DNA from: Patescibacteria group bacterium
Lineage (GTDB): Bacteria; Patescibacteriota; Microgenomatia; UBA8517
DNA: 64,000 nucleotides
Direction of reading: 5' to 3'
NCBI GenBank assembly: GCA_041742135.1
Contig: JBGSJG010000008.1
Span: forward strand, 32,518-96,517
Under the pieces are notes generated by a model. The model was not told the origin of the DNA. It saw only the letters and a list, made by a program, of their open reading frames with translations, and searched no databases. The position numbers and the translations under genes are program-made. Of the stretch, positions 2,025-60,915 are shown one piece after another; position 1 is the first letter of the stretch, and each line of letters opens with the position of its first letter.

Positions 2025-5000
2025 ATGGCAAAAAAAGCACCCGATTTGGACATTATAGTACCCGTTCTAAACGAAGAAAAATCAGTCGAAAAACTGATTA
2101 TAAGAGTTCATGATGCATTAAAATCTGCTCGTATTGAGTACAGATTGATCTTTGTTGATGATCACTCCTCTGATGCTACTGTAAAAAGGATTTTAGCTTT
2201 AAAGAAAAGTTACCCAATAGTTTTACTAACGAAAAAAGGGGCGCGTGGTAAGGCTTATAGTATTTTAGAAGGGGCGAGAGTCGCAAGCGCGAAAATCGTC
2301 GCGATGCTAGATGGAGATTTACAGTATCCTCCCGAGGCAATCCCCGAGATGTTTTCTCTTACAAAACAGCATGGGGTCGTAGTGGCAAACCGCAAAAAAA
2401 GAAGTACTTCAGCTTTAAGAAAGTTTGTTTCTAAGTTTGCTGCATTCGCGGTTGCAAAAGTGTTATTAGGCTTTAACTGTGATGCTCAGTCCGGTCTTAA
2501 GGTGTTTAAGCGAAAAGTAATCGAGAGTATTACTGAAGAAGACGTCAAGCCATGGGCTCTTGATATGCCACTTCTGCACTCAGCGCTTCAGATGGGTGAA
2601 AGCATCGGCACTGTGGATATTAACTTTAGCGCGCGAAAAAGTGGGCGATCTAAGGTTAATTTGTGGAAGACATCACTAGAAATTATTTTAGTAGCCTTGA
2701 AACTTCGTTTTGGTACATCAAAAGTTGCACACATATCTCCCGTGCGAGGGCACAAATATAAAGGTGCCGGCGTGATTCATAAATCGAAGACATATATTAC
2801 TCACACAAGGTTGCCTCACAGAAAATCTGCACTTTACACACTCGTGGCTTGGCAAAAGTGGTTTATACTCAGCGTATTCGCATTAGTGGGTATCGGACTT
2901 CTTTTGGATAGCTTGACCACGCTAGTGATTTTAATTGCTGGGCTGTCCTTAATATATTTTTCTGACGTGATTTTTAGCTCTTTTGTGCTACTCAAAAGCC
3001 TTCATTTCCCACCTGAGCTCAAATTTACCGACGAAGAATTAGGTGCAATCGACGAGAAGAAATTGCCTCTTTATACAGTTCTTTGCCCACTTTACAAAGA
3101 AAGCTCGGTTCTGCCGAAATTCGTCGAATCTGTTTCAAACCTGGACTGGCCCAAAAACAAGCTTGAAGTATTAATTCTCTTAGAAGAGGATGACGCAGAG
3201 ACACTCGAAGTGGCTAAAAGCCTTAAATTGGCAAAGTACTTTAAGGTAATAGTTGTTCCTGATTCCCAACCTAGAACAAAGCCTAAGGCTTGTAATTTCG
3301 GATTAAGCGAAGCGCGAGGAGAATTTACTGTTGTATACGATGCAGAAGACCGACCTGAGCCCAGCCAACTTAAAAAAGCGTACTTGGGGTTTCTTAAAAG
3401 TAGTAACAACGTAATATGCCTGCAATCTAAGCTCAATTATTATAATCCTGAAGGAAATTTGCTCACCAGGCTATTTACTGCAGAGTATTCGCTTTGGTTT
3501 GACGTTGTATTGCCAGGTCTTCAGTCGATCGACTCAAGTATCCCACTGGGGGGCACGAGCAATCATTTTAGAACTCAAGCACTAGCTGATCTTCACGGAT
3601 GGGACCCATTCAATGTGACAGAAGATTGTGATTTGGGAGTGAGAATTTTTAAGTCAGGTTTCAAAACTGCGATTATTGACTCCATAACTCTCGAAGAAGC
3701 TAATAGCTCAGTCAAAAATTGGATAAGACAGAGATCGAGGTGGATCAAGGGTTACATTCAAACTTACTTAGTCCACATGCGTGACCCCATTGCTTTTTTC
3801 AAGGCTCACGGCATCCATGCGCTAATTTTTCAGCTCATCATCGGGATGCGCATAAGCTTTTTGTTTATTAATCCGTTCTTGTGGTTAATGACGTTTTTAT
3901 ATTTCGCGTTTCGAAGTACTGTTGGCCCAACTATTGAAGCTCTTTACCCACCTGTAATTTTCTATATCGCCTCGTTTTCATTGGTCGTGGGTAACTTTAT
4001 GTACATCTATAACTATATGATTGGTTGCGCCAAAAGAGGCCAGTATGGGTTGATTAAGTATGTACTATTCATTCCTCTGTATTGGTTATTGGCTAGTCGC
4101 GCTGCTCTTAAGGCGATTCATCAACTTGTAGTTAAGCCTCATTTTTGGGAAAAAACTCACCACGGTCTTGATCAGGCAAAGATTGCTGTGCCAACGTTTG
4201 CGTTTCCAAAGGTTTCGGTCGTGGCATCAGGCTTAAGTCTAGTACTGGCCGCGTCTGTGGCAAACCTCTTAAATTTCATTACAAGTGCTTATCTTGGCCG
4301 CGTGCTCACTCCGGACGAATTTGGGCTAGTAGCGCTTATGAGCAGCCTCTTGTTTATTGTTCAGCTTGGCTACGGCGGGATTTTCCAAACCATGTCCCAC
4401 CAAACGGCCTATCTTTCAGGAAAGCACAAAAAACTGATCGGCAACCTCTGGACTAAAGTTCGCCCCAAAGTATTTTTTGCTTCAATCGTCTTCTTTTTGC
4501 TGTGGTTAATGCTAATTCCAGTCATGCCTAACTTCTTTAACTCAGCAACATTCGTACCATTTATTGTCTTCTCGCCAATATGGGTTGTGTTGTTTTTGAA
4601 CTCAGTCGACTCTGGGTTTATTCAAGGGAGTGGGAAATACCATTACCTTGCGGTTATATTTTCGCTCGAAGCATTTTCCAAGCTAGCATTGTCATTTTTA
4701 CTTGTTAACTCAGATCTTCGGGAATGGGTTTATGCTGCCTTGCCGCTTTCGACGTTTGTTAATTTAGCAATCGGCTGGAAGCTGGCCGGGCGTGTCTCGA
4801 AAAACAACCAACTTACAAAACCTCAGGAAGTTAAAACATCCAAAGATCTTACGCTTTCGAGGAAATTTTTAGCTAATTCGCTATTGTCTCAATTTGCCGT
4901 GATTTCTTTTCTTAGTTTGGATCTTTTGTTTGTGAAACATTTTATGTCTGCTCGGGATGCGGGTGTTTACGCATTATTGGCTCTTTCTGGCCGGATGGTT

Positions 5001-6668
5001 TATTTGGCAAGTAGTTTACTGGCACAATTTATACTGCCGATAATTAGCCGCCAGAGTGGTGAGGGCGAATTGCACAAGAACGCATTCAAGTGGTCAATGT
5101 TAGCTGTTGCCGCGCCTGCCTTGTTTGTGTTTTTAATTGTAGGACCGCTTGGTGCATTTACTTTGCCTCTGATGTTTGGGGAGCGTGCGCGAGAGATAAC
5201 TAGCCTCTCAACTACCTTCGCATTTTCAATGGTACTTTTTTCTTTGGCCGCCGGGATAGTTACATTTCACCAAGCTCGCAGACAATACGTTTTTGTGTTG
5301 GCAGGGGTAATCACTGCGGCAACTCAGGCCACACTTTTGCTGTTTTTCCATAGCAACTTGGGGCAAGTAGTTAATTCCATGTTGGCAAGTTCGATAACGT
5401 TTGTATTGCTGTCATCAATTTTTCACTTAAATTCCACAAGGATGGTAATTTTAGGTTCAAATTTTCGAGACATGTGGGATTTGCTTTGGATGAAATTTAA
5501 CGGAAAAACGCCGATTGAAGGCAAGCTTAGAATCTTAATATTAAACTGGCGAGACACAAAGCATGTATGGGCCGGAGGTGCGGAAGTTTATGTTCACGAG
5601 CTTGCCCGAAGATGGGTCAAAGAGGGACATAAAGTTACACTATTTTGTGGAAACGACGGCAAGAGCAAGCGTAATGAAGAAGTCGGTGGAGTGAGAGTTG
5701 TACGCCGGGGAGGATTTTACACAGTTTATCTTTGGGCTTTTTTCTATTATATATTTCGTTTCCGTGGCAGATATGATGTTGTTGTCGATAGCGAAAACGG
5801 TGTGCCGTTTTTTACACCACTTTACTCAAGAGTTCCAAAGATCCTTATCATCTATCATGTACACCAAGATATTTTTCAAAAACACCTGTCTTTTCCACTT
5901 TCAGTTGTGGCGCGATTTCTTGAAGGAAAATTTGTGCCTCTAGTTTATAAAAATGTTCAAATTGTTACCATTTCAAATTCATCCAAAAAAGGCTTGGTAA
6001 AGTTGGGAGTAGGAAATAGTAAAGAGATGTATGTGGTTAATCCCGGAGTTGATTTGAAACTCTTAAAGCCAGGACCCAAAGCGGCCAGCCCTACAATTTC
6101 CTATCTGGGTCGGCTTAAACCATATAAGTCGGTTGATACATTAATTAAAGCCGCGGCACTTCTTGTTAAGGATTTGCCTAGTTTGAAAGTAAAAATTGCT
6201 GGATTTGGAGAAAGTAGATTATCTTTGGAAAAATTGGTTGCAAAGCTTGGGTTGTCTAGTAACATTGAGTTTTTGGGTAAAATTTCTGAAAATCAGAAAG
6301 CGAAACTTTTAGCTCAGTCTTGGGTTTTTGTGCAACCATCTACCATGGAAGGTTGGGGAATTTCGGTGATTGAAGCAAACGCTTGTGGAACTCCCGTCGT
6401 GGCTTCCCGCGTACCCGGGCTTCTTGACTCGGTTAAAAATCCATCTACTGGGTACGTAGTTCAAGCAGGCAACGAGAAGGCTTTTGCCGAGAAAATTAAA
6501 AAAATTCTGACTGACGAGCAACTGAGAAATGAATTTTCGAAAAATTCAATAGAGTGGGCTCAAAGTTTTGACTGGAACGAGAAAGCTTCAGAATTTATGT
6601 TAGTGATTAATAAAACTGTCGCTCGCGCTAACGGCTCAGAATCATACAGTATCGCTGAAACTAATTAA
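2025..6668 (+). CDS. 1547-aa four-module glycan synthase fusion: GT2 (DPM1/GtrB-like) – GT2 with QxxRW – Wzx/MOP-like flippase – GT4
   Basis: Module 1 (nt ~2025-2714): IVPVLNEEKS...LIFVDDHSSD...MLDGDLQYPP. TM segments follow. Module 2 (nt ~3042-3824): DxD-like EEDDAE, DAEDRPE, TEDCDLG and QRSRW (at ~3727). Module 3 (nt ~4216-5450): 10-12 predicted TM helices. Module 4 (nt ~5527-6668): GT4 core with EGWGISVIEANACGTPVVASRVPG. Confidence 0.75.
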   Translation: MAKKAPDLDIIVPVLNEEKSVEKLIIRVHDALKSARIEYRLIFVDDHSSDATVKRILALKKSYPIVLLTKKGARGKAYSILEGARVASAKIVAMLDGDLQYPPEAIPEMFSLTKQHGVVVANRKKRSTSALRKFVSKFAAFAVAKVLLGFNCDAQSGLKVFKRKVIESITEEDVKPWALDMPLLHSALQMGESIGTVDINFSARKSGRSKVNLWKTSLEIILVALKLRFGTSKVAHISPVRGHKYKGAGVIHKSKTYITHTRLPHRKSALYTLVAWQKWFILSVFALVGIGLLLDSLTTLVILIAGLSLIYFSDVIFSSFVLLKSLHFPPELKFTDEELGAIDEKKLPLYTVLCPLYKESSVLPKFVESVSNLDWPKNKLEVLILLEEDDAETLEVAKSLKLAKYFKVIVVPDSQPRTKPKACNFGLSEARGEFTVVYDAEDRPEPSQLKKAYLGFLKSSNNVICLQSKLNYYNPEGNLLTRLFTAEYSLWFDVVLPGLQSIDSSIPLGGTSNHFRTQALADLHGWDPFNVTEDCDLGVRIFKSGFKTAIIDSITLEEANSSVKNWIRQRSRWIKGYIQTYLVHMRDPIAFFKAHGIHALIFQLIIGMRISFLFINPFLWLMTFLYFAFRSTVGPTIEALYPPVIFYIASFSLVVGNFMYIYNYMIGCAKRGQYGLIKYVLFIPLYWLLASRAALKAIHQLVVKPHFWEKTHHGLDQAKIAVPTFAFPKVSVVASGLSLVLAASVANLLNFITSAYLGRVLTPDEFGLVALMSSLLFIVQLGYGGIFQTMSHQTAYLSGKHKKLIGNLWTKVRPKVFFASIVFFLLWLMLIPVMPNFFNSATFVPFIVFSPIWVVLFLNSVDSGFIQGSGKYHYLAVIFSLEAFSKLALSFLLVNSDLREWVYAALPLSTFVNLAIGWKLAGRVSKNNQLTKPQEVKTSKDLTLSRKFLANSLLSQFAVISFLSLDLLFVKHFMSARDAGVYALLALSGRMVYLASSLLAQFILPIISRQSGEGELHKNAFKWSMLAVAAPALFVFLIVGPLGAFTLPLMFGERAREITSLSTTFAFSMVLFSLAAGIVTFHQARRQYVFVLAGVITAATQATLLLFFHSNLGQVVNSMLASSITFVLLSSIFHLNSTRMVILGSNFRDMWDLLWMKFNGKTPIEGKLRILILNWRDTKHVWAGGAEVYVHELARRWVKEGHKVTLFCGNDGKSKRNEEVGGVRVVRRGGFYTVYLWAFFYYIFRFRGRYDVVVDSENGVPFFTPLYSRVPKILIIYHVHQDIFQKHLSFPLSVVARFLEGKFVPLVYKNVQIVTISNSSKKGLVKLGVGNSKEMYVVNPGVDLKLLKPGPKAASPTISYLGRLKPYKSVDTLIKAAALLVKDLPSLKVKIAGFGESRLSLEKLVAKLGLSSNIEFLGKISENQKAKLLAQSWVFVQPSTMEGWGISVIEANACGTPVVASRVPGLLDSVKNPSTGYVVQAGNEKAFAEKIKKILTDEQLRNEFSKNSIEWAQSFDWNEKASEFMLVINKTVARANGSESYSIAETN

Positions 6669-6669
6669 C

Positions 6670-7593
6670 ATGCCCAAAACAAACAAACCAAAAATTACTG
6701 TGGGGATAACTACGTGTTATGGGAAAAGGCAGCTTCTATCTGCGGTTCGTTCTGTTAAAGAATCGGTTGGTGTAGACAATTTTGAAATTATTGTTATTGC
6801 GGACTCCGTGCCATTGACACCATTTGTTAAACAGGGTCTAAAAAAAATGGGGGTAATAATTCGCGAAAACAAGATACCTTCAAGTGCTTTTGCCAAACAA
6901 AAACAGATTTTAAAACTATGTAAAGGAGAAATCATAGTTTTAACTCAGGATGATATGTTATTCGAAAAAGGTGCTTTAAGAGAAATCGCATCAGCGCTAA
7001 GTGTTGACGACGGCGTTACCTTTGTTGGTATCCGGAATGAACCAGTTAGTCCAAAAACACTAGTCGAAAGGGGAATAAATGTTGGCACAAGGCTAAACAA
7101 TTCAATTGGAAAGCTACGGCGAGATGGCGATAACTATCTAGCAATGCTCGGGCGGGTTATGGCCTTTAAAGTAAGCTGGCTTAAAAAACTCAATGTTCAC
7201 TCTGAATCGGTTTCCTTGGATGCATATTTATACCTTGAAAACAAAAAACATGGAGGAAAGTATCGATGTTTGTGGAACACCTGTCTTTGGTTTCGAAACC
7301 CCACGAACATTGATGAGCATATTAGAAAAAGCAGCCGATTTCAAAACTCAAAACATGAAATGCTGTCTTACGGAAAGTTTGCCAACCTTGAAGTCGAATA
7401 TAAAATACCTTTCTGGGTTATTTTAATTGCTGCTACCAAGGAGCTAATGCGCGATCCTATCGGTTTTGTAATTTATGTATATATTTTTGTCTATACGAGA
7501 GTTTATAAGCAAAAACCAGCAGCGTGTCTGACTGCATTGTGGGAAGTGGATCGATCAACCAAGGATATTAGGATGGCCGGAGGTGCAAGATGA
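6670..7593 (+). CDS. Putative GT-A-fold glycosyltransferase with C-terminal TM segment
   Basis: KITVGITTCYGKR...FEIIVIADS...IIVLTQDDMLF resembles a GT2-like DxD arrangement; hydrophobic C-terminus. The start sits 2 nt after the upstream stop. Confidence 0.35.
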   Translation: MPKTNKPKITVGITTCYGKRQLLSAVRSVKESVGVDNFEIIVIADSVPLTPFVKQGLKKMGVIIRENKIPSSAFAKQKQILKLCKGEIIVLTQDDMLFEKGALREIASALSVDDGVTFVGIRNEPVSPKTLVERGINVGTRLNNSIGKLRRDGDNYLAMLGRVMAFKVSWLKKLNVHSESVSLDAYLYLENKKHGGKYRCLWNTCLWFRNPTNIDEHIRKSSRFQNSKHEMLSYGKFANLEVEYKIPFWVILIAATKELMRDPIGFVIYVYIFVYTRVYKQKPAACLTALWEVDRSTKDIRMAGGAR

Positions 7594-9008
7594 AAAAATT
7601 ATTTTCCAAGTATGATTTTTTACCATTTACTTTTTTGGCGGCCGTGTTGGTCTTTTTCCGATTGGGGTTTCATAGTTTCGAGCTAGATGAGGCTTTTAGT
7701 TTGTACATATCAAAAGATTTAGGGCAAATGTTTAAGATTCTTTGGAATAACGAATCAAACATGGGGCTCTATTATTTCTTACTTTATTTCTGGCAATTTT
7801 TAGGAACCAGCGAATTTGCCGTTCGAAGCCTTTCTGCGATATGTGCCATTCTTTCAGTTCCACTCGTTTATAAAATCGCCTCACTTATGTTTGACAGATC
7901 AACCGCTCGAATATCTAGCTTGCTGTTGGCTATTAATATTTATTTTATTTATGTAGGCCAGTTGGCCAGAGGATACTCGCTTTTACTCTTGTTGTCTTTA
8001 GTGTCTACGTATTCATATTTACACTTGAAAAAATACTCTAAAGCTAGGTATGTATATGTTGTATCGCTGATTGCTTCGGTTTTTACACATTATTATGCTA
8101 TCTTGCTATTTATTTCTCATGCTTTGGATGCGTTTACTCGAAAGTTTGCAGGGTCTTTTATTAAAATTGTTTGGCCGGTATTAATCGTTTTGCCTGTGAT
8201 CTTTATAGCTCCTTCATTTTCTAGCGGGCAAATTGACTGGATCGCTGCGCCGACAGTTAAGAATCTAATAGGCACAATATTTGTGCTAGCCGGCGATTTT
8301 CCTCCACTGTTTATAGTTTACGGACTAATTTTTGCTATGAGTTTGCCATTCTTGGTGAGCCGAATTAGGAATGAAAAAATGCAGTTTACATTAATTTGGT
8401 TGACTGGCCCAGTTGTTTTTGCCTTCATTTTTTCAATTTTTGTAAAGCCGATTTTCCAGTCGGTATACTTCATAGTTTGCCTTCCACCATTTTTAATTCT
8501 ATCAGCGCACTTAATCGATCAAATAAAAGTTAAGAAAATTAAGGAGACAATGCTTGCAGCAATTATCATTTTATCTATTGCCAGACTTTATTTGTGGTAT
8601 AGCGGAAATGCACAACACCAATGGATTTTAAGTAACACTTCTGAAGACTGGAGAGCACTGGCTCATTATGTCGATCTCCAGGAAGAGACGGGCGATTCAA
8701 AAATATTTTTTGGATACTACAACAGGCTGCCATACGGACTCTATGCGAAAGATAATGCGAAGTTTGTCGAAATTTCATCTGGACTATATTCACTGGGAGG
8801 CGGATCGAGTTTGCCCTACGCAAATTTGAATTTGATTGCTAGTTTCAATCACTCTCGTGTGTGGGTGATTAAGCGAAAAGCCGACTTAGGTAATTTCAAC
8901 GATCGAGAAATTTTAGACCAAATACATGTGACTTTGATACCAAATTATAATTTGGAAGAGGAGACAAAATTTCCAGAAGTATCTGTTGAACTGTGGAGCA
9001 AAATATGA
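7590..9008 (+). CDS. Multi-pass membrane protein, GT-C-like (PMT/ArnT-related) glycosyltransferase
   Basis: More than 10 hydrophobic helices. Acidic motif in the first extracytoplasmic loop (FELDEAFSLY). ATGA overlap with the upstream gene. Confidence 0.45.
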   Translation: MKKLFSKYDFLPFTFLAAVLVFFRLGFHSFELDEAFSLYISKDLGQMFKILWNNESNMGLYYFLLYFWQFLGTSEFAVRSLSAICAILSVPLVYKIASLMFDRSTARISSLLLAINIYFIYVGQLARGYSLLLLLSLVSTYSYLHLKKYSKARYVYVVSLIASVFTHYYAILLFISHALDAFTRKFAGSFIKIVWPVLIVLPVIFIAPSFSSGQIDWIAAPTVKNLIGTIFVLAGDFPPLFIVYGLIFAMSLPFLVSRIRNEKMQFTLIWLTGPVVFAFIFSIFVKPIFQSVYFIVCLPPFLILSAHLIDQIKVKKIKETMLAAIIILSIARLYLWYSGNAQHQWILSNTSEDWRALAHYVDLQEETGDSKIFFGYYNRLPYGLYAKDNAKFVEISSGLYSLGGGSSLPYANLNLIASFNHSRVWVIKRKADLGNFNDREILDQIHVTLIPNYNLEEETKFPEVSVELWSKI

Positions 9009-11774: not shown

Positions 11775-11778
11775 AACT

Positions 11779-18644: not shown

Positions 18645-18667
18645 TGTGATTGTAGTATACTCTATGC

Positions 18668-44096: not shown

Positions 44097-44097
44097 A

Positions 44098-52449: not shown

Positions 52450-54065
52450 AGAAAATACTAATCGGCATATTTCTTTTGGCATTTTTTATTAGGATCGCCT
52501 ATGTTGGTTCATACCCTCTTAGCTTATCAATGGACGAGTTATCGATTGGATACAACGCATATTCAATATCTGAAATTGGAATGGATGAGTGGGGGGTTCG
52601 TTACCCGCTCGTATTTAGATCTCTTAGCGACTACAAACCACCAGTAAGTGTTTATTTAGTGGCCATTTCGGTTCGACTTTTTGGATTAAATGAATTTTCG
52701 GTCAGGTTCCCAAATGTTCTCATAGGATCGCTAAGCGTCTTAGTGTTTTTTGGCTTACTGAGAGAACTTAAATTTAATAAAACGATATCGCTGGTTGGAG
52801 CAGCTTGGTTGGCCATAAACCCTTGGCATGTTTTTTATTCTAGAGCTGGTTTTGAGACATTGATTGCTTTATTTTTTGTAATAGCTGGTATTTGGTTCTT
52901 TCTTCGTGGAGTCAGTCGTAAATCAAGTTTAATTTTAAGTTTGAGTGCTATTGCCTTTTCTCTGTCAGTGTGGACGTACCACGCCGAACGGATATATGTG
53001 CCTATTCTTGTCTTTATCTTGGTTGTTTTAAAAAGAAAAGAGCTTTTGGTAATGCTAAAAGCGCAAAAGATCAAGCTTATTTTTCCCTTTTTGACCACTA
53101 TCCTTTTTGCAGCACCGTTTATTTATATGTGTGTATTTGCTGGTGATACTACTGCACGAGCATTTTCAACTTCTCTGCTTCGAGATTTTCATTTAACTGG
53201 CAGTCTTCACGCACACGGATACAGTGACGTTTTAGATATGATTTTTAATAACGACATCTTTTTAATCTTTAGACACTTTTTAGGAAAATACCTAAACTAT
53301 ATCGACGTAGAGTTTTTGTTCAAAAATGGACTTCACCTGACTCTTCCAGAGTATCCCGGAATGGGGTTGCTTTACCTAGTGGACTTGCCGGTTGTGCTTG
53401 TCGGAGTCTGCTCGGTTGTTACACACAAAAGCACTTTTCTTAAAAAAATTACACTTGCTCTTTTTTTTCTTGGGCCATTGGCGGCCGCTTCGACGCTAGA
53501 TGAGCAGCACACCCTTAGAGCTTTAACTTGGCTGCCGTTTTGGGGCATTATTTTTGTTTCAGGAGTGGATTATGTTGTTAAGCAAAGAATACGCTTGATT
53601 AAGCCTGTTGTAGCATTTTACTCACTAGCTCTTTTGCTTAATTTTACTTATTTTGCAGACATGTACGTGCGACAGTTTCCTTATTTTTACAGCGAACTCT
53701 GGCTTTACGGCTACAAAGAAGCGTCTATTTTGGCTTGTGCCGAAAAAGACAATTACGATTATATAGTTTTAACGGATACTTTCGGGCAAGATGGCCCACT
53801 TTACACAGGAGTGCCGTATGAATATGTGCTTTTTTATTGCAACATCCACCCTTCAGAGTTTTTGGCAAATGGAAGGAAAATCCCCAAAATACTAATGAGG
53901 CGTCCAGACTGGCCAAGCGACGTCAAAAAAGATATGCTTGTTATCGCAGCGCCTTACGATTTTCCGCTTGATCAGATCGATCAAAAGCAAATTGTCAAAA
54001 CGATCTCGTATTATAACGGGAAAAAGGCCTTTATAGCAGTTACAACTAGACTAAATGAAGAATAA
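52446..54065 (+). CDS. PMT/ArnT-family GT-C glycosyltransferase, tandem paralog 3
   Basis: SMDELSIGYNAYSISEIGMDEWGVRYPLVFRSLSDYKPPVSVYL...LFGLNEFSVRFPNVLIGSLSVLVFFGLLRE. Confidence 0.65.
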   Translation: MKKILIGIFLLAFFIRIAYVGSYPLSLSMDELSIGYNAYSISEIGMDEWGVRYPLVFRSLSDYKPPVSVYLVAISVRLFGLNEFSVRFPNVLIGSLSVLVFFGLLRELKFNKTISLVGAAWLAINPWHVFYSRAGFETLIALFFVIAGIWFFLRGVSRKSSLILSLSAIAFSLSVWTYHAERIYVPILVFILVVLKRKELLVMLKAQKIKLIFPFLTTILFAAPFIYMCVFAGDTTARAFSTSLLRDFHLTGSLHAHGYSDVLDMIFNNDIFLIFRHFLGKYLNYIDVEFLFKNGLHLTLPEYPGMGLLYLVDLPVVLVGVCSVVTHKSTFLKKITLALFFLGPLAAASTLDEQHTLRALTWLPFWGIIFVSGVDYVVKQRIRLIKPVVAFYSLALLLNFTYFADMYVRQFPYFYSELWLYGYKEASILACAEKDNYDYIVLTDTFGQDGPLYTGVPYEYVLFYCNIHPSEFLANGRKIPKILMRRPDWPSDVKKDMLVIAAPYDFPLDQIDQKQIVKTISYYNGKKAFIAVTTRLNEE

Positions 54066-55701
54066 ACTATTACTTGCAATTTTTGTTTTTGCCTTGATTA
54101 TCAGGGTTTGGAACATTAATGCCCTTCCACCGTCGCTCAATTGGGACGAAGTAAGCCATGGATATAATGCCTATTCAATAATCCAAACTGGTAAGGATGA
54201 ATGGGGGGAGGTCTTGCCATTAATATTTCGGGCATATGGCGATTACAAATTGCCAGTCTACATTTACTTGACTGCGCTTTTTGAGTATCTACTAGGTGTA
54301 AGCGTACTTTCAGTTAGGCTGACTTCCATTTTGGCTGGTAGCTTTTCTGTAGTGCTAGTTTATTTTTTGTCGTTAGAAATATTCAAAAAGAGAAGCACTG
54401 CCACAATTTCAGCCTTACTTATGGCGATAGTCCCGTGGAGTTTGTTTCTCTCCCGTATCGCTTTGGAAGCCAACTTGGCTTTGGCGTTGGTGATTGCAGG
54501 TTTTTTGTTTTTCATAAAAGGAGTCCGTGGGTCGAAATGGCTATTGGTTGTAAGTATGTTGTTTTTTGGGTTATCGATGTGGACATATAATTCATGTCGA
54601 GTCTTTGTTCCCATAATCATGGTCTTAATGGGAATTTTATACAGAGCAGAACTTAGCCAAAAACTTAAAGCTAACAAGCGTGTTTTTATTGCTATCGCTG
54701 TAGTTCTTACAGTAATTTTTACTCCGGTAGCGTATCAGATGGTAAATTCGGTAGGGCTTGCGCGCTACGAAAATATACAAATTCTTGATTCAGGAGCAAT
54801 AGCGCGCATCGAGAATTCTAGGGCTTCATCAGGCTTGCCTAGCATCCCTGCGCGGCTGGTTTATAACAAGGCAACATATATGGCAATAAATATTTTTGGA
54901 AATTATACAAAACATTTTGGACTGAATTTTCTATTTTTTACAGGAGGAGATAACTACCAATTTAGTGTTCCCGGGCAAGGACTTTTATATATCGTAAATA
55001 TTCCATTTTTATTCATAGGGCTTTGGGCCACGAGGAAAGTAAAATCTAAAGAAAAAATACTGCTTTTGTTATGGCTATTTGCGGCACCAATTGCAGCTAG
55101 CATCACACGGGAGTCACCTCATGTGTTGCGTAGTATCTTGATGCTGCCACCATTAGTTATTCTGATAGGCTTGGGTGTTTCCTTTTTTGATCGTTACAGA
55201 TTTTCAACTAAAAGAATTTTATTGTTTGTCTACGTGACAGCACTTTTGATAAGTTTTGCGGATTATGCCCACAATGCACTGAATATCTACAGACAAAGAT
55301 ATTCACAATCTTGGCAATATGGGTACGAGCAGCTAGTAGATAAAATTCGCGATAGGTATGACAGTTATGAGAAAATTGTTATTACTAAGAAGTATGGTGA
55401 GCCACATGAGTTCTTGTTTTACCACTGGCCTTGGTCGCCCGCAATGTTGCAGGCTGATACAAGTAAAATTCAATTTAAGCAATCAAACTGGTATTGGACT
55501 GACAAGTTTGACAAGTTTTATTTTGTTAATGACTGGGATATTCCAAAAACGGGGGTTAAGTTTGTACTTGAAAGTGGGCAAGAAATTGAATGTGCCAGCT
55601 GCATGCTAATTACCGCTGGAGGAGCACCTGAGAATTGGAGACAGTTGGACACGATTTATTTTCTAGATGGCTCTGTTGCTTTTGAAATATATGAACATTA
55701 A
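54055..55701 (+). CDS. PMT/ArnT-family GT-C glycosyltransferase, tandem paralog 4
   Basis: NWDEVSHGYNAYSIIQTGKDEWGEVLPLIFRAYGDYKLPVYIYL...SVRLTSILAGSFSVVLVYFLSLE. Confidence 0.65.
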   Translation: MKNKLLLAIFVFALIIRVWNINALPPSLNWDEVSHGYNAYSIIQTGKDEWGEVLPLIFRAYGDYKLPVYIYLTALFEYLLGVSVLSVRLTSILAGSFSVVLVYFLSLEIFKKRSTATISALLMAIVPWSLFLSRIALEANLALALVIAGFLFFIKGVRGSKWLLVVSMLFFGLSMWTYNSCRVFVPIIMVLMGILYRAELSQKLKANKRVFIAIAVVLTVIFTPVAYQMVNSVGLARYENIQILDSGAIARIENSRASSGLPSIPARLVYNKATYMAINIFGNYTKHFGLNFLFFTGGDNYQFSVPGQGLLYIVNIPFLFIGLWATRKVKSKEKILLLLWLFAAPIAASITRESPHVLRSILMLPPLVILIGLGVSFFDRYRFSTKRILLFVYVTALLISFADYAHNALNIYRQRYSQSWQYGYEQLVDKIRDRYDSYEKIVITKKYGEPHEFLFYHWPWSPAMLQADTSKIQFKQSNWYWTDKFDKFYFVNDWDIPKTGVKFVLESGQEIECASCMLITAGGAPENWRQLDTIYFLDGSVAFEIYEH

Positions 55702-57370
55702 ACGAATCGCACTTGTGGCTATATTGGTTTTGGCAGCAATTTTGCGTCTTTATAAGCTGGGTGAGTTTCCCATACACCTTACCAACGACGAAGCTGGATT
55801 GGGATACAACGCTTATTCAATCTTGCAAACTGGCAGAGATGAGCACGGGAATTTGTTCCCAGTGATTTTTAAGTCATTTGGGGATTGGAAGCCGGGACTT
55901 TATGTATATCTTTCTGTTCCCACAATCGCCCTTTTTGGGTTAAGCGAATTTTCAGTACGGCTTCCTTCTGCGCTCATGGGAATATTGGCCGTTTTATATA
56001 TTTACAAACTTGGATCAAAACTTTTTGGTGATAAAGTTGGCTTATTTTCTGCTCTATCTCTGGCGCTACTTCCTTGGCATATTCATTTCTCCAGAGGTGC
56101 CTGGGAGGCAAATGTCGCATTAACTTTGCTAATCGGAGGAGTTTATTACTTTCTAAAGTCATTTGAAAATAATAAATATTTTGTTTTGTCTGCGCTGTTT
56201 CTTTCCTTGACCCTATGGTCTTATCAAAGTGCAAAGATCGCGAGCTTGATTGTTTTGGTAGGATTAGCGTTTTTATACCACAAGCAGTTATTCAAAATTA
56301 AGTTTAAATACCTTGTGTCTGCCTTGATACTGGGACTATTAGTATCCTTGCCTATCGTTTTGTCATTGTTCACAGGAAAAGCGGGTCGCGCAAACGTGAT
56401 GAGCGTTTTTTCTTATACTCGTTCGGAAGAGTACATAGAAGAAACCGTTTTTGCTCACGAAAATATCACTAGAGATAGTCCGATTTTTGCGCTGTACCAC
56501 TCAGAAGCGCTTAACTTGTTTCGAGGCATATCTGGTAGATATCTTAACTACCTAAGTGGTAAGTTTCTGTTTTTCGAAGGCGATTGGTCCAATCCGAGGC
56601 ATACATCTGTCGACTCTGGATATTTGCTTTATGTTGACATAATAATCTTTGTTTTGGGAATTATTGGAATTTTGAAGCGAAAAATGTCAAAAGAAGTTGC
56701 GTTTGTTTGGTTTTTATTTTTGGTTTCTCAGGTTCCCGCGGCTTTGACTCGTGACAGTGCGCATGGTGTTAGATCTCTTGGAATGATATTTCCTATTTCC
56801 TTGATACTCGGTTACGGTTTAAATGACTTGGTACATTATTTACAAATGAATAAATTGGCCATTAGGTTATTTGGCTTTATTGCGTTGGTTTCCGCTTTCG
56901 TGTATAGCATGGCAATTTACTTAGACGCTTATTATGTCCAAAATAAATACCTAGAGCCAAAAGATTATTTTTATGGGTATAAACAAGTAGTCCAGAAAGT
57001 ATTTGAAAGAGAAACAAAGTATGAAAAAATAGTTTTTTCTCAAAGCTACGATCAGCCCTATATCTTCTTTTTGTTTTTCGGAGCTATGGATGGGGACTCG
57101 AGATTTTCAGCATGGGAGTATCAGAAAGAAAGTAGCTTTGAAGAGAACCAGTGGGGAGACGTTGGTTTAATCAAGAAGCTGGGCAATATTGAATTTAGAC
57201 CAATTAATTGGTATGACGACCGAGGCTTGGGGAACACACTTTTTATCGTCCGTGAAGAAGATGTCTCAAAAAGCGATTTGATCAGTAAGGAATTTAATAT
57301 TGAGACTGTAAGTTACCCCGATGGAAAAACAGCATTTATCTTAATAAACAAAAATGAAATTAATCAATAA
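55691..57370 (+). CDS. PMT/ArnT-family GT-C glycosyltransferase, tandem paralog 5
   Basis: TNDEAGLGYNAYSILQTGRDEHGNLFPVIFKSFGDWKPGLYVYL...LFGLSEFSVRLPSALMGILAVLYIYKLGSK. Start chosen at Met 55691 (MNIKRIALV...), which gives the same N-terminal length as the paralogs; the track ORF begins at 55667. Confidence 0.6.
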   Translation: MNIKRIALVAILVLAAILRLYKLGEFPIHLTNDEAGLGYNAYSILQTGRDEHGNLFPVIFKSFGDWKPGLYVYLSVPTIALFGLSEFSVRLPSALMGILAVLYIYKLGSKLFGDKVGLFSALSLALLPWHIHFSRGAWEANVALTLLIGGVYYFLKSFENNKYFVLSALFLSLTLWSYQSAKIASLIVLVGLAFLYHKQLFKIKFKYLVSALILGLLVSLPIVLSLFTGKAGRANVMSVFSYTRSEEYIEETVFAHENITRDSPIFALYHSEALNLFRGISGRYLNYLSGKFLFFEGDWSNPRHTSVDSGYLLYVDIIIFVLGIIGILKRKMSKEVAFVWFLFLVSQVPAALTRDSAHGVRSLGMIFPISLILGYGLNDLVHYLQMNKLAIRLFGFIALVSAFVYSMAIYLDAYYVQNKYLEPKDYFYGYKQVVQKVFERETKYEKIVFSQSYDQPYIFFLFFGAMDGDSRFSAWEYQKESSFEENQWGDVGLIKKLGNIEFRPINWYDDRGLGNTLFIVREEDVSKSDLISKEFNIETVSYPDGKTAFILINKNEINQ

Positions 57371-58991
57371 AAATATTATTCTAATTTTAATTCTTCTCTT
57401 GGCTGGTATTCTTCGCGTTTACCAGCTTGATGTTTATCCAGCGTTAAATGCCGACGAGGCCTCCATCGGTTACGATGCTTACTCGCTAATTGAGACTGGA
57501 AAAGATCAGCATGGAAATTCGTGGCCTATCCATTTCCAGTCCTTTAATGACTATAAACCTGGTGGCTACGTTTATGCAGTTTTACCATTTGTGTATTTAT
57601 TTGGACTTAATGAATGGAGTGTGCGACTGCCGGGTGCGATTTTTGGAATTTTTACAGTCTTGGCAGTCTATCTTTTGGCCCGTGAGCTAAACGTAGGAAA
57701 CTCCAAACTTAAAATTGTTTCAGCTCTTCTTTTAGCTATTTCTCCGTGGCATATTCATTTCTCCAGAGGTGGCTGGGAAGTTAATATGGCAACTTTTTTG
57801 ATAACTTTGGGATTATATTTTTTTGTTAAAGCTCAAAGGCAGATGAAGTATTTGGTCATTAGTGTTTTGCTTTTGACTCTCAGTCTTTACACCTATCATG
57901 CTGCTCGTGTGATAGTTCCACTTTTGGGGTTGGGGCTTTTGGCAATTTATCGAAAGACTTTGCTTTCAAAAGACAATCTCAGACTAAGCGTAGGGGCAGC
58001 TGTCTTTGTGTTTGTGCTGGTTGTTCCACTTATGAGCAATTTTTTTGGTGATGCTGTCTCCTCTCGGGCTTCGGGTGTGAGTATTTTGGCAGACCGAGGC
58101 TACATTGACAGAATTAACGAGAAAAGAGGAAGGCATGATAATCCCAGTTCGATTGTTAACAGGCTGATTTACAATAGACCGAAAGAAATTGCAATCGAGT
58201 TTGGTAAAAATTATCTAGAGCATTTTTGGGGCGATTTTCTATTTATATCAGGTGATGACATAGAGCGAAACAAGGTTTCAGAGTTTGGGCAATTGTACAT
58301 GTGGCAGCTTTTTGCATTAGTTGTTGGGGTAGTTGCTGTAGTCAAAAAACAAAAAGAGTGGGGAGTGGTTGTTTTATGGTTACTATTAGCACCGATTCCT
58401 GCTGCACTAACTTTTCAGTCACCACATGCACTTCGTGCGCAGAGTATGATTATTCCATTAATAATCCTTTCAGCTTTAGGTTTATGTATCGTGCTAGATT
58501 TTATAAAAAGAAAAGTCAGTAGCAAAACGCTTCGCACAATATTTTACCTCGCAATAAGCTTGGTAATTGTTTGGGATTTTTCAAGATATTTGCACAATTA
58601 TTGGGTTCACATGTCCAAGGCTTATCCATATTCATCTCAATACGGAGTAAAAGAATTGGTCAGTTATCTGGCTAATGAGCAGTCTCATGAAAAGAATATT
58701 ATAATAACTACAAGGTACGACCAACCTTACATCTTGTTCCTGTTTTATTTGAAATACCCTCCCAAGCAGTTTCAAAATGATCATGTGTTAAGTGGAAGGG
58801 ATGAATACGGTTTTTCTACAGTACCAACTTTTGATCGATATGAATTTAGAAAAATAAATTATGATACTGAATGGAGTTTATACCAGAATTCAGTGGTAGC
58901 TGGAACTGATGAGGAAATCGTTGAAGGGGCGAACGTAATAAAAAACATTTATGGGACGAACGGCTTTTTGTATTTCCAGGTAGTTAGATGA
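57354..58991 (+). CDS. PMT/ArnT-family GT-C glycosyltransferase, tandem paralog 6
   Basis: NADEASIGYDAYSLIETGKDQHGNSWPIHFQSFNDYKPGGYVYA...LFGLNEWSVRLPGAIFGIFTVLAVYLLARE. Confidence 0.65.
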   Translation: MKLINKNIILILILLLAGILRVYQLDVYPALNADEASIGYDAYSLIETGKDQHGNSWPIHFQSFNDYKPGGYVYAVLPFVYLFGLNEWSVRLPGAIFGIFTVLAVYLLARELNVGNSKLKIVSALLLAISPWHIHFSRGGWEVNMATFLITLGLYFFVKAQRQMKYLVISVLLLTLSLYTYHAARVIVPLLGLGLLAIYRKTLLSKDNLRLSVGAAVFVFVLVVPLMSNFFGDAVSSRASGVSILADRGYIDRINEKRGRHDNPSSIVNRLIYNRPKEIAIEFGKNYLEHFWGDFLFISGDDIERNKVSEFGQLYMWQLFALVVGVVAVVKKQKEWGVVVLWLLLAPIPAALTFQSPHALRAQSMIIPLIILSALGLCIVLDFIKRKVSSKTLRTIFYLAISLVIVWDFSRYLHNYWVHMSKAYPYSSQYGVKELVSYLANEQSHEKNIIITTRYDQPYILFLFYLKYPPKQFQNDHVLSGRDEYGFSTVPTFDRYEFRKINYDTEWSLYQNSVVAGTDEEIVEGANVIKNIYGTNGFLYFQVVR

Positions 58992-59851
58992 TCAAACTAA
59001 GTATAGTTTTAGCAGTTAGAAATGAGGAAGAAAATATTGCAAGATGCTTGAGCGCTGTTGCGGATATTGCTGATGAAATAATTATTTTTGATGAATATTC
59101 GGTGGATAAAACCCGTGATATCGCGAAGTCTTTTGGCGCGAAAGTATATTTGGAACCACATCACGCTAACTTCCATATTACAAAACAGAAAGCCATCAGC
59201 AAGGCTCGAGGCGAATGGATTTTGCAATTGGATGCAGATGAGGTGGTCACGCCTGAGCTTGCTCGCGAAATCATAGACGTTACCCAGATGAATTACGAGC
59301 AAATTATTTCTCGAAGGCCAAAGGAAAATAAAAAGTTGGTTTTATTTCAAAGACATTTGAAAGTGGTAGAGGAAAAAGATGGAAGTCTGGGTAAAAAGTC
59401 TGGGGAAATTGTTGCTTTCTTTGTTCCTCGAAGAAATATGTTTTTAGGAAAACCCTTAATTCACGCAGGTGTTTACCCCGATGCTGTCATCAGACTAATT
59501 AGACGTGGAAAGGCGTATCTTCCAGCCAAATCAGTACACGAGCAAATGGACATAGATGGAGAGGTGGCTTGGCTATTTAATGATTTACTTCACTTCGATT
59601 CCCCGACGCTAGCGAGATACTTTAGTAGACTAAACCGATACACAGACCTAAGGGCACAAGAGCTAAAAAACAGCAATGTATCTAAAGGGCTGCAAGGTTT
59701 CATCAAAGAAGTCGTAATTATGCCAATTTTGGTTTTTGTAAAGTTATACTTACGACACAAAGGGTTTTTGGACGGTCCTCGCGGGTTTATGTGGTCAGCC
59801 CTGTCAGCTAGTCATTTTCCCATTTCATATTTTAAATACATCACAAAATGA
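58988..59851 (+). CDS. GT2 family glycosyltransferase (WaaE/KdtX-like), paralog C
   Basis: LSIVLAVRNEEENIARCLSAVADIADEIIIFDEYSVDKTRDIAKSFGAKV...LDADEVVTP; clear paralog of 40508 and 42323. Confidence 0.65.
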   Translation: MIKLSIVLAVRNEEENIARCLSAVADIADEIIIFDEYSVDKTRDIAKSFGAKVYLEPHHANFHITKQKAISKARGEWILQLDADEVVTPELAREIIDVTQMNYEQIISRRPKENKKLVLFQRHLKVVEEKDGSLGKKSGEIVAFFVPRRNMFLGKPLIHAGVYPDAVIRLIRRGKAYLPAKSVHEQMDIDGEVAWLFNDLLHFDSPTLARYFSRLNRYTDLRAQELKNSNVSKGLQGFIKEVVIMPILVFVKLYLRHKGFLDGPRGFMWSALSASHFPISYFKYITK

Positions 59852-60915
59852 AAAAAATCGCTATCGATTCTCTTCCCTTGGTTTCTGGGCATTCCTCGCG
59901 AGGGATGGGAGTATATGCGCGAAGATTGATAGAGAACATAAAACTAATTGGGCAAAGTGATTTCGATGTTAATGAGTTTAATTTCATCGAAAACAAAACT
60001 AAGTTACAAAATTACGATTTAATTCATTATCCATATTTCGATCTTTTCTATCGTACACTGCCTTTTTATAAGCCTACAAAAACAGTCGTGACAGTAGCTG
60101 ATGTGACTCCACTTTTGTTTCCGAAGTATTACCCGCCGGGTTTTCGAGGATCATTTAACTTTGCACTACAGAAGAAATCGCTAAAAGGTGCAGACGCAGT
60201 GATAACAATTTCAGAGACCTCGAAAGCGGACATTGTGAAGTATCTTTCTATTGCGGCAAATAAAATATTTGTGACCAAGTTAGCTAGTAACTTTTCAATT
60301 CACAAAGTCGCAAAACAAAACTTGCTTCACGTTCAGAAAGAGTATGATTTGCCGAAAAGATTTGTGCTTTACATTGGCGATGTTAACTGGAACAAGAACC
60401 TGCTTCGGTTGATTGAAGCGGTGAAACAGAGCGGAGAAATACTAGTAATTGTAGGAAAAAGCGCGACAAGGACGGATTACGACAAAGCCCATATTGAGAA
60501 TCTGCCACTTAGAACCCTGCAGGAAAACTACAGCAACGACAGGCAAGTTAGACGTTTGGGATTTGTTGAAGATGATGAGCTAAATGCAATTTGGCAGCTT
60601 GCGACAACGTACTGCATGCCTTCCTTGTATGAAGGCTTCGGTTTATCTGTGGTTGAAGCAATGGAAGCTGGTGTTCCAGTCCTATCTTCAAACACTCCTG
60701 CATTGGTTGAAACTGCAGGGGAAGCAGCACTATATTTTGACCCAGAAGATGTTTCAGATATGTCAGCAAAACTGGTAAAAATTACGAAAGACTCCACACT
60801 AAGAAAGTCACTTATCTCAAAAGGGTACGATAAAGCTAAAACTTACTCTTGGCGAAAATGCGCCAAGGAGACACTGGCTGTCTACAAACATGTCTTGAAT
60901 TTAAAATTTAAATGA
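59848..60915 (+). CDS. GT4 family glycosyltransferase
   Basis: YEGFGLSVVEAMEAGVPVLSSNTPALVETAGEAALYFDPEDV. Confidence 0.7.
   Translation: MKKIAIDSLPLVSGHSSRGMGVYARRLIENIKLIGQSDFDVNEFNFIENKTKLQNYDLIHYPYFDLFYRTLPFYKPTKTVVTVADVTPLLFPKYYPPGFRGSFNFALQKKSLKGADAVITISETSKADIVKYLSIAANKIFVTKLASNFSIHKVAKQNLLHVQKEYDLPKRFVLYIGDVNWNKNLLRLIEAVKQSGEILVIVGKSATRTDYDKAHIENLPLRTLQENYSNDRQVRRLGFVEDDELNAIWQLATTYCMPSLYEGFGLSVVEAMEAGVPVLSSNTPALVETAGEAALYFDPEDVSDMSAKLVKITKDSTLRKSLISKGYDKAKTYSWRKCAKETLAVYKHVLNLKFK

Follow-up and report, generated by a model that had tools for sequence, protein, structure and literature searches.

Multi-component transmembrane glycosylation, exemplified by GtrA/GtrB/GtrX of Shigella and Salmonella, CsbB/GtcA/YfhO and GtlA/GtlB of the Firmicutes, GacI/J/K/L of S. 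pyogenes and ArnC/ArnT, acts on O antigens, teichoic acids and Gram-positive wall polysaccharides (PMC8035078; PMC11127046). Here we describe a block of glycosyltransferase (GT) genes, every component of which is of a known kind and whose scale and packing are unusual. It is located at positions 2025-60915 of a 64-kb stretch of contig JBGSJG010000008.1, and this whole stretch is referred to as the window in the following. We read it as one conserved, almost uninterrupted block for surface-glycan biosynthesis working in two compartments, a reading to which we assign a probability of about 70%. As in the multi-component systems, GT2 enzymes of the type forming polyprenyl-phosphate (polyprenyl-P) sugars stand beside polytopic membrane proteins of the GT-C type carrying an outer-loop acidic motif, candidate flippase domains of the GtrA or Wzx type occur, and many of the GT-Cs match the family PMT_2 like the multi-component enzymes of Firmicutes. 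In contrast to these systems, which comprise one to few pairs adding one side-chain sugar each, the window encodes 18-19 GT-Cs and 4-5 candidate donor synthases; most of the GT-Cs have no adjacent donor GT2, three of the donor GT2s are unanchored and a stand-alone GtrA is missing.

The best analogy is the GT-C set of Mycobacterium and Corynebacterium, where the enzymes of lipomannan, lipoarabinomannan and arabinogalactan synthesis comprise Ppm1, PimE, MptA-D, EmbA-C and AftA-D (PMC3485146, PMC3123699, PMC12041525) and where the GT-Cs build lipomannan and arabinan from polyprenyl-P-mannose and decaprenyl-P-arabinose (PMC3485146, PMC3123699). Unlike these genera, the lineage of the window is unrelated, and neither Arabinose_trans or Emb-type Pfam matches nor phosphatidylinositol-mannoside genes were seen in the window. 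The mycobacterial GT-C genes are similar in number and scattered over a 4.4-Mb genome, whereas here they lie within ~60 kb of a roughly 1-Mb genome and are more densely packed. Another analogy is offered by the eukaryotic lumenal ALG enzymes. Like the lumenal steps of N-glycosylation and O-mannosylation in eukaryotes and archaea (DPMS, ALG3/9/12/6/8/10, STT3/AglB, PMT), the window contains a gene (19220-20368) with the architecture of, and strong similarity to, archaeal dolichol-phosphate-mannose (Dol-P-Man) synthase, successive GT-Cs would be fed by lipid-P-sugars, and Pmt4, STT3B, AglB and ALG12 are found among the structural matches. In contrast to the lumenal systems, the window lacks a WWDYG motif and an STT3 family match, the sequence identities are 9-15% and the bacterial carrier is presumably undecaprenyl phosphate. 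The RmlB/RmlD-like genes, GT2s, GT4s, MOP flippases and deacetylases resemble Wzx/Wzy and Gram-positive rhamnose-rich wall polysaccharide loci, whereas the window yielded neither an initiating phosphoglycosyltransferase nor a Wzy, a chain-length regulator or an LCP ligase.

Bacteria of the candidate phyla radiation (CPR), to which the window belongs (see below), make up a large share of bacterial diversity, have genomes of ~1 Mb and are thought to be attached to or dependent on other cells, so that much of their biology would take place at the cell surface. Its chemistry is essentially uncharacterised. A first-pass annotation of the window had considered the system biochemically undescribed; in agreement with this, a full-text literature search pairing CPR, Patescibacteria or Woesebacteria with GT-C, glycosyltransferase or ArnT-type terms found no paper describing GT-C clusters in CPR, although such a search misses most subscription-journal papers and an earlier description is possible. 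For a 0.8-Mb Microgenomates genome '29 glycosyl transferases ... notable' were remarked upon (PMC7143001), and a Saccharibacteria paper mentions GT87 and Dol-P-Man synthase genes. Complete Microgenomates genomes span 0.80-1.09 Mb (PMC7143001), and the block of ~60 kb probably amounts to some 6% of the genome.

Glycosyltransferase content of the block

All open reading frames (ORFs) of at least 100 aa were compared with the Pfam and NCBIfam family models (Table 1). Thereby 14 GT2, 4 GT4, 2 MOP/Wzx flippase and 2 deacetylase domains were found within the block, and the total amounts to 36-37 glycosyltransferase domains in ~59 kb, half of them GT-C. These numbers are close to those of the first-pass annotation: its about 13 GT2 domains became 14, two of them in the fusion protein 2025-6668 and 12 in separate genes (starting at 6670 (weak), 8993, 19220, 22793, 29524, 31759, 40508, 41412, 42263, 44098, 45000 and 58988), and its four GT4 domains (C-terminus of 2025-6668, 9885-11774, 42984-44096, 59848-60915) and two flippase domains (2025-6668, 37261-38835) were recovered unchanged. 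From its three deacetylases, two lie within the block and the third (62674-63528) outside.

Where about 20 GT-C proteins had been proposed, 18 are supported and one more is likely. The Pfam gathering score of PMT_2, PMT, GT87 or PTPS_related (the last of which we take to be a member of the GT-C clan of Pfam) was reached by 13 proteins, starting at 7590, 23479, 27985, 30191, 34087, 35735, 47201, 48871, 50145, 52446, 54055, 55667 and 57354. By paralogy, 32468-34093 (35% identity to 34087-35748 over 542 aa) and the C-terminal half (480 residues) of 45000-47204 (26% identity to 27985-29511 over 499 aa) belong to the same class, and 21588-22742 shows sub-cutoff matches to PMT_2 (E 6e-4) and to NCBIfam AZOBR_p60025 'cell surface glycopolymer formation' (E 8e-10). 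Three large polytopic proteins (12525, 14000, 38798) had neither a Pfam match with E up to 10 nor a PDB sequence match. The first of them, 12525-14009, matches the NCBIfam family LA_3751/LA_3752 putative glycosyltransferase with E 3.4e-15 and 55.8 bits against a cutoff of 200; the same family is matched by 14000-15604, whose orthologue in relatives always adjoins that of 12525-14009, and together with ~10 hydrophobic segments and a DE motif this makes 12525-14009 a likely GT-C. The first-loop acidic motif that had been ascribed to these proteins was found just after the first transmembrane segment (TM1) in 19 of the 19 candidates, as DE in ten, DD in two, HD in two and as a single D or E..D in the rest.

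Since sequence-only searches of the ORFs without a match gave nothing, structure prediction was needed for 14000-15604 and 38798-40486. The AlphaFold2 models (pLDDT 78 and pTM 0.81 for the former, pLDDT 88 and pTM 0.90 for the latter) both consist of a helical bundle followed by a C-terminal alpha/beta domain, and a hydropathy scan gave 10 segments in 38798-40486 and 6 in 14000-15604, the latter number being too low owing to the chosen threshold. Both models superpose on solved GT-C enzymes, with Pmt4, STT3B, AglB and ALG12 as the best structural matches at only 9-15% sequence identity, and the predicted C-terminal globular domain of 38798-40486 resembles that of AglB. The pairs N50-D51 within YNDARSH and H49-D50 within GHDGxWH are invariant in 40 and 41 aligned sequences of the two families, respectively, and their position after TM1 would place both acidic motifs on the outer face. 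A fold and a probable role can thereby be assigned to two large families of 'hypothetical' membrane proteins that current domain libraries overlook or hardly recognise: 14000-15604 has 2072 homologues (the 120 matches listed are 58-77% identical, none with a Pfam domain) in a family spanning 2695 clusters at 50% identity, and 38798-40486 has 1491 homologues, none with a Pfam domain. In hhalign comparisons the 38798-40486 family was related to the six-paralogue family of the GT-C array (Table 1) with a probability of 81%, and the 14000-15604 family gave 8% with the six-paralogue family, which is not significant, and 0.4% with the 38798-40486 family. Distant members of the 14000-15604 family reach the PMT_2 cutoff, and some of them (P0370, P0411, P0443, P0453, P0459, P0472) are fusions of the order GtrA + GT2 + GT-C, GT2 + synthase-type GT2 + GT-C, or GT-C followed by GH5 or GH113; the second order contains the same two GT2 types as the N-terminus of 2025-6668. 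The GtrA + GT2 fusions lend indirect support to the assumption that 14000-15604 and 38798-40486 may use a polyprenyl-phosphate-linked sugar donor. Membership in the canonical oligosaccharyltransferases (STT3/AglB/PglB, GT66), which the two proteins resemble in fold only, was ruled out: neither a W[WYF]D[YFWN]G or WWD motif nor an STT3 Pfam match was found in any of the 52 window proteins, and because both were missing the proteins were not filed as GT66.

The six paralogues of the array share 28-35% identity, and their family profile matches ArnT (5ezm) with E 0.0016. An additional array gene, 51712-52449, corresponds to profile positions 204-401 of 552 only (E 1.3e-7) and lacks the catalytic N-terminus; it is probably a decayed duplicate. 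The PMT model PF02366 (22.7-bit cutoff) is passed by 23479, 30191, 52446, 54055 and 57354, so that a PMT-model match is combined with a DE motif in loop 1, and homologues carry the NCBI name 'glycosyltransferase family 39 protein'. As PMT_2 outscores PMT in every case, the assignment to GT39 is not secure.

Candidates for enzymes forming polyprenyl-P-monosaccharides were recognised by homology among the GT2s. The gene 19220-20368 matches the P. furiosus Dol-P-Man synthase (PDB 5mlz) with E 7.8e-39 over residues 3-350, 22793-23497 matches ArnC (9bhc, E 6e-16), GtrB (5ekp, E 5e-12) and DPMS (E 1e-11), and the closest NCBIfam models of 29524 and 31759 are PgfS, ArnC, PpgS and Dol-P-hexose transferases. 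The fusion protein 2025-6668 comprises a polyprenyl-P-sugar-synthase-like GT2 (residues 10-166, 27% identical to 31759-32478), a membrane-synthase-type GT2 (350-633), a MOP/Wzx-type flippase (733-1009) and a GT4 domain (1184-1511). Besides the two MOP/Wzx domains, the only further candidate for flipping a lipid-linked sugar is the GtrA/DPMS TM domain, present solely as part of 19220-20368. Between 22793 and 34093 GT2 genes adjoin GT-C genes four times in succession (22793/23479, 27985/29524, 29524/30191, 31759/32468), an alternation which is a signature of multi-component transmembrane glycosylation, and in 45000-47204 both parts are fused. With 4-5 candidate donor synthases for 18-19 GT-Cs, most of the GT-Cs must draw on common donors and be distinguished by acceptor or linkage. 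The GT2/GT-C pairs and the natural fusion proteins offer concrete targets for heterologous assays.

Host lineage and conservation of the block

A tblastn search with TrmD, covering one genome per GTDB species, returned two Candidatus Woesebacteria metagenome-assembled genomes (MAGs) as best matches (65% identity), with Beckwithbacteria and Microgenomates next in line. For three cluster proteins, homologues with a named source stem almost exclusively from Woesebacteria, Microgenomates, Shapirobacteria, Blackburnbacteria or the 'Patescibacteria group'. The proposed CPR/Patescibacteria origin agrees with both results. The refuting case named in the first-pass annotation, a contig from a well-studied lineage, was accordingly not borne out. 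One marker and synteny support an assignment of the genome to Candidatus Woesebacteria (Microgenomates, CPR). Low GC content and TTG starts had been named as further signs of CPR; a GC content of 0.38-0.43 was indeed observed in the window, although neither feature is diagnostic and some of the TTG starts are artefacts of ORF extension. Several MAGs recovered in these searches (L004, L005, L007, L008, L017, L020, P0314) are labelled 'uncultured Gammaproteobacteria', 'Mollicutes' or 'Bathyarchaeia'; these labels look wrong, as the records carry a Microgenomates-like TrmD and some of them also the GT2/GT-C neighbourhood or a protein of the 14000-15604 family.

Synteny with related genomes was evident. 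On the JGI contig P52013CM_1002742 (366.6 kb) the whole block is collinear over ~64 kb in nearly the same gene order. This one stretch contains the orthologues of 14000-15604, 38798-40486 and 54055-55701, a GT2-GT2-flippase-GT4 fusion (1566 aa, 57% identity; L086), the sortase module, trmD and the GT-C array. On a contig resembling Woesebacteria RIFCSPLOWO2_01_FULL_44_24b the part 42984-60915 was found in the same order. The order near trmD (GT2+GtrA, unknown gene, GT-C, GT2, GT-C, DHH, GT-C, GT2) is common to loci of Woesebacteria, Collierbacteria and Beckwithbacteria and was not shared by the other CPR and non-CPR loci compared. When 80 trmD-anchored loci were compared for GT-C-like ORFs within 10 kb of trmD, close relatives had 1-4 each, single matches occurred elsewhere in two non-CPR loci (L035, L062), and none was found within this distance in loci of Saccharibacteria, Dojkabacteria, WWE3 and Parcubacteria. 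Other genomes share the cluster, a conserved feature of this Woesebacteria lineage that public assemblies already contain; its gene-for-gene retention in relatives points to an elaborate surface glycan as central to the lineage.

Orthologues are mostly 50-75% identical, whereas paralogues within the window share 26-35%. The GT-C duplications are consequently old and each copy has been retained, which favours separate functions of the copies over a recent amplification. The array orthologues in L083 and L088 are 50-70% identical, and those of 21588-22742 in ten relatives 42-58%; the exceptions are 50145-51830, only 36% identical in the JGI contig, 52446-54065, which has no orthologue in the relatives, and 51712-52449, which is absent from the relatives examined. 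Compared with the relatives, the window has GT2 31759, the PTPS_related GT-C 35735, GT2 41412 and the array member 52446 as extra genes, and also three NrnA-like genes, the fusions 45000-47204 and 9885-11774 and a different tail module, the place of which is taken in the JGI relative by a flippase, a GT2, a 645-aa protein and a GT4. The fusion 45000-47204 corresponds to two genes overlapping by 4 nt in L083 (3165-5410) and to the GT-C part only in the JGI relative. Relatives (L002, L010, L087) have one NrnA-like gene between GT-C genes, the orthologue of the third copy 27045-28052 (66% identity). These comparisons point to a conserved backbone modified locally by gain and loss of genes, which is what one would expect of a surface structure. 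Two features of the JGI relative L086 are absent from the window: a pair of FemAB-like Acetyltransf_6 genes that separates the PIG-L gene from the GT-C pair (6344-8472), and a 1066-aa M23 peptidase/discoidin-domain protein on the minus strand downstream of the 20727-like gene (17858-21058).

A proposed two-compartment scheme and its alternatives

The block is real, conserved and uncharacterised. Its domain content, folds, motifs, taxonomy, synteny, orthology and the fusions were shown by the analysis, and the mechanism proposed for it is an extrapolation from known systems, by which the sugar donors, membrane topology, step order and acceptor as well as the number of products, one or several, are suggested. 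On the cytoplasmic face nucleotide sugars, including dTDP-rhamnose from the RmlB/RmlD-like genes, would be used by about nine ordinary GT2 and the four GT4 domains, and oligosaccharides would be assembled on undecaprenyl phosphate with de-N-acetylation steps. The two MOP/Wzx flippase domains would export the lipid-linked products. The 4-5 ArnC/GtrB/DPMS-like GT2s (19220, 22793, 29524, 31759 and probably the first domain of 2025-6668) may form polyprenyl-phosphate monosaccharides which, after flipping, could serve 18-19 GT-Cs at the outer face in extending, branching or decorating cell-wall-linked polymers and/or surface proteins. Such a combination of lipid-carrier sugar synthases, GT-Cs and soluble glycosyltransferases had already been suggested in the first-pass annotation and fits the homologies. 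Since relatives contain a separate conserved orthologue for every GT-C paralogue, the paralogues would catalyse distinct steps like an assembly line, which, by analogy to mycobacterial lipomannan/arabinan synthesis and to the eukaryotic lumenal ALG enzymes, is the most likely arrangement.

Several observations weigh against this scheme. Family scans of the window found no initiating phosphoglycosyltransferase, Wzy polymerase, LCP-type ligase or stand-alone GtrA, and in a test for the Wzx/Wzy pathway no window protein matched a Bac_transf, MraY/WecA-type or Wzy/O-antigen-ligase family. The pathway is thus incomplete as seen; the genes of the initiating enzyme and of Wzy may be located elsewhere in the genome. 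The NCBIfam matches to named enzymes are all far below the equivalog cutoffs. According to hydropathy, the short GT2s 22793, 29524 and 31759 are without the membrane anchor of ArnC/GtrB and may, in analogy to known systems, need a partner such as GacJ, none of which is evident in the window. Promoter and terminator scans of the window gave counts equal to the shuffled expectation and are uninformative on operon boundaries. Finally, the block encloses trmD and the NrnA-like genes, and its modules vary from one relative to another, so that it may hold several unrelated pathways.

The last point leads to a picture without any single line, in which two Wzx-dependent glycans and many separate GT2/GT-C 'three-component' decorators, adding one sugar each to different acceptors, are simply packed into a gene-dense, co-directional genome. 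It differs from the two-compartment block in emphasis only, and we hold it for possible at odds clearly below even. The housekeeping genes keep their position in relatives, L010 runs from a 29524-like GT2 directly to a 40508-like GT2, the GT2 31759, the GT-C 35735 and the array member 52446 are extra with respect to the JGI contig, and Gram-positive bacteria carry several independent GT2/GT-C pairs (PMC8035078). However, the small number of candidate synthases requires donor sharing, eleven GT-C genes (three at 32468-37369 and those in 45000-58991) have no adjacent GT2 of the polyprenyl-P-sugar type, the gene order of 42984-60915 is unchanged in the relatives examined, and 33 co-directional genes follow one another from 22793 to 63528 with no gap above 30 nt. 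A different question is the acceptor. The GT-Cs could act mainly as protein glycosyltransferases, by O-mannosylation or otherwise, on secreted proteins such as S-layer proteins, pilins or sortase-anchored proteins, with 14000-15604 and 38798-40486 as non-canonical oligosaccharyltransferases taking the flipped lipid-linked oligosaccharide. Passing of the PMT (GT39) cutoff by several array members with a DE motif, the NCBI naming as 'family 39', the position of 38798-40486 directly after the Wzx-type flippase, the sortase substrate with its G/S-rich linker encoded in the block, and PMTs and oligosaccharyltransferases among the best structural matches are in line with this. Polysaccharide-acting GT-Cs score nearly as well, however, no window protein shows a WWDYG-type motif or an STT3 match, teichoic acids and wall polysaccharides are the substrates of the PMT_2 proteins of Firmicutes (PMC8035078), and the fusions of the 14000-15604 family with GH5/GH113 and synthase-type GT2 point to a polysaccharide substrate. 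Mainly protein-directed GT-Cs, although compatible with the two-compartment block, appear unlikely. More speculative still, and improbable in our view, is an 'ER-lumen-like' line outside the cell membrane of Woesebacteria and their Microgenomates relatives, in which ~19 GT-Cs and few lipid-phosphate sugars would build one very complex glycan and in which 14000-15604 and 38798-40486 (both with an AglB-like C-terminal domain, no WWDYG) could represent a new type of oligosaccharyltransferase or ligase transferring the completed glycan to surface proteins or to the cell wall.

Two further explanations can be set aside. A GT-C array of redundant copies, created by recent tandem amplification or forming a variable cassette of the serotype type, would explain why six paralogues are adjacent, and the truncated 51712-52449 and the extra 52446-54065, both absent from relatives, speak for some ongoing gene gain and decay. 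Yet the low identity of the paralogues and the positional orthologues of five of the six, of which four share 52-70% identity with their counterparts in each of the two relatives compared, largely refute this explanation and leave it very little probability. An artefact of assembly or binning (a chimeric contig, collapsed repeats or the like) had to be considered in view of the metagenome source and of the clearly unreliable MAG labels of several relatives. It is refuted for practical purposes, since a separately made Logan assembly of SRR28170474 and a 297-kb NCBI contig contain identical proteins, the same gene order was obtained on independently assembled JGI and ENA contigs, and GC content and GC skew are even along the window.

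Gene layout and neighbouring features

As outlined in Table 1, the glycan genes extend to both ends of the window, with a truncated RmlB and an RmlD-like gene (17-1938) on one side and a HAD, an ATP-grasp and a deacetylase gene (60912-63528) on the other. In total, 52 plausible genes occupy essentially all of the 64 kb. The earlier description of nearly all genes on one strand with frequent short start/stop overlaps holds: 50 of the 52 genes are on the plus strand, trmD (17988-18644) and the GT-C-like gene 21588-22742 being the only ones on the minus strand, and at 25 of the 51 junctions the genes overlap by 1-20 nt, eleven times by 4 nt of the ATGA type. Gaps of 0-30 nt were found at 11 junctions, gaps above 30 nt at 4, and longer overlaps, probably artefacts of choosing the most upstream start codon, at 11. 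The 33 consecutive genes of 22793-63528, ~41 kb with many 4-nt overlaps, constitute a candidate for an exceptionally long transcription unit. Promoter-like sites coincide with the four gaps above 30 nt. The largest non-coding gap of the window (20369-20726, 358 nt) separates the DPMS-like gene from the conserved gene 20727-21593 and contains only a 101-aa TTG-start ORF on the minus strand (20361-20666) and a promoter-like site at 20692-20720. A tRNA scan and an Rfam scan of the window gave zero matches.

Table 1. Features identified in the 64-kb window, listed by position; entries up to 1938 and from 60912 onwards lie outside the block.
Position	Strand	Assignment	Basis and remarks
17-541	+	RmlB, dTDP-glucose 4,6-dehydratase, C-terminal part cut by the window start	Pfam; TIGR01181 E 4e-68, below equivalog cutoff
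525-1028	+	Nudix hydrolase	Pfam
1006-1938	+	RmlD-like dTDP-4-dehydrorhamnose reductase	Pfam; TIGR01214 E 2e-29, below equivalog cutoff
2025-6668	+	Fusion GT2-GT2-flippase-GT4, 1547 aa	Pfam; ~16 hydrophobic segments
6670-7593	+	Weak GT2-like protein	PF00535 25.0 bits vs 23.3 cutoff
7590-9008	+	GT-C (PMT_2)	Pfam; ~11 hydrophobic segments; DE after TM1
8993-9898	+	GT2	Pfam
9885-11774	+	Polysacc_deac_1 + GT4 fusion	Pfam; relatives have the GT4 part only
11701-12525	+	PIG-L family de-N-acetylase	Pfam
12525-14009	+	Likely GT-C	~10 hydrophobic segments; DE after TM1; NCBIfam LA_3751/LA_3752 sub-cutoff
14000-15604	+	GT-C, highly conserved, family without Pfam match at this sequence	AlphaFold2 model; YNDARSH after TM1
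15619-16842	+	Secreted protein, 407 aa, no family match	N-terminal hydrophobic segment
16909-17490	+	Small secreted protein, G/S-rich linker, sorting signal LAQTG + TM + RRKRH	TIGR01167 16.9 bits vs 15.9 cutoff
17312-18007	+	Sortase	Pfam Sortase E 2e-19; true start probably downstream of the listed start
17988-18644	-	trmD, tRNA (m1G37) methyltransferase, housekeeping	PF01746 E 1e-56
18668-19216	+	Yip1-domain membrane protein	Pfam; 4 hydrophobic segments; position conserved in L086
19220-20368	+	GT2 + GtrA/DPMS TM domain, archaeal DPMS type III architecture	Pfam; PDB 5mlz
20727-21593	+	Conserved soluble protein, no family match	Orthologues in Woesebacteria loci
21588-22742	-	GT-C-like protein	~8 hydrophobic segments; sub-threshold PMT_2
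22793-23497	+	Short soluble GT2, polyprenyl-P-sugar-synthase type	ArnC, GtrB, DPMS matches; NCBIfam
23479-25023	+	GT-C	PMT_2 E 5e-13
25054-28052	+	Three tandem NrnA-like DHH/DHHA1 genes	41-44% identical to each other
27985-29511	+	GT-C	Pfam
29524-30249	+	GT2	Pfam; NCBIfam
30191-31762	+	GT-C	Pfam
31759-32478	+	GT2	Pfam; NCBIfam
32468-34093, 34087-35748, 35735-37369	+	GT-C, PTPS_related type, three paralogues	Pfam, paralogy; DD or HD after TM1
37261-38835	+	MOP/Wzx-type flippase	Polysacc_synt_3 E 1e-51; NCBIfam MOP flippase E 5e-32
38798-40486	+	GT-C, family without Pfam or NCBIfam model	AlphaFold2 model; GHDGxWH after TM1
40508-41407, 41412-42326, 42263-43093, 42984-44096, 44098-45003	+	Five Leloir enzymes: GT2, GT2, GT2, GT4, GT2	Pfam, NCBIfam
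45000-47204	+	GT2 + GT-C fusion, 734 aa	GT2 by Pfam; GT-C half by paralogy
47201-58991	+	GT-C array	Pfam, paralogy
47201-48874, 50145-51830, 52446-54065, 54055-55701, 55667-57370, 57354-58991	+	Six PMT_2 paralogues of the array	Pfam
48871-50148	+	GT87-like protein of the array	Pfam
51712-52449	+	Truncated array-family fragment, 245 aa	Profile match
58988-59851, 59848-60915	+	GT2, then GT4, closing the array, in relatives too	Pfam
60912-61505	+	HAD-IB hydrolase	Family models
61505-62677	+	ATP-grasp ligase	Family models
62674-63528	+	XrtA-system-type polysaccharide deacetylase, Polysacc_deac_1 + DUF3473	TIGR03006 258.9 bits vs 276.2 cutoff

The interruptions of the block named in the first-pass annotation, that is, the sortase module, trmD and three nrnA-like genes, were all confirmed by family models and the sorting motif. 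In contrast, a gene pair described as divergent with a Nudix-like member (20727-21593 and 21588-22742) turned out to be convergent, and 20727-21593 found no support as a Nudix protein: it has no Pfam or PDB match, and NudE was reached with E 0.12 only. The genuine Nudix gene is 525-1028. The weak GT2-like protein 6670-7593 had no NCBIfam match and no orthologue in the parts of the JGI relative examined. Despite the XrtA-type deacetylase 62674-63528, no exosortase was seen in the window.

The secreted protein 15619-16842 had no family (Pfam, NCBIfam) or PDB match; its orthologues are 51-60% identical and are likewise placed after two GT-C genes in the relatives. It occupies the place of the hydrolase domain seen in the fusions of the 14000-15604 family. 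A GH5/GH113-like hydrolase is no more than a lead for it, as pairwise BLASTP comparisons with the fusion proteins were not significant (best E 0.65). The LAQTG sequence of 16909-17490 represents a variant of LPXTG, and the Gly/Ser-rich linker of this protein would be a plausible glycosylation site. The NrnA-like genes, of the oligoribonuclease/pAp-phosphatase type, are fixed within the glycan block and triplicated in the window.

The GC skew of the window is positive in all 2-kb bins and the cumulative skew climbs without a turn, so that the G-rich strand carries nearly all genes; a strong strand asymmetry has been described for some Microgenomates genomes (PMC7143001).

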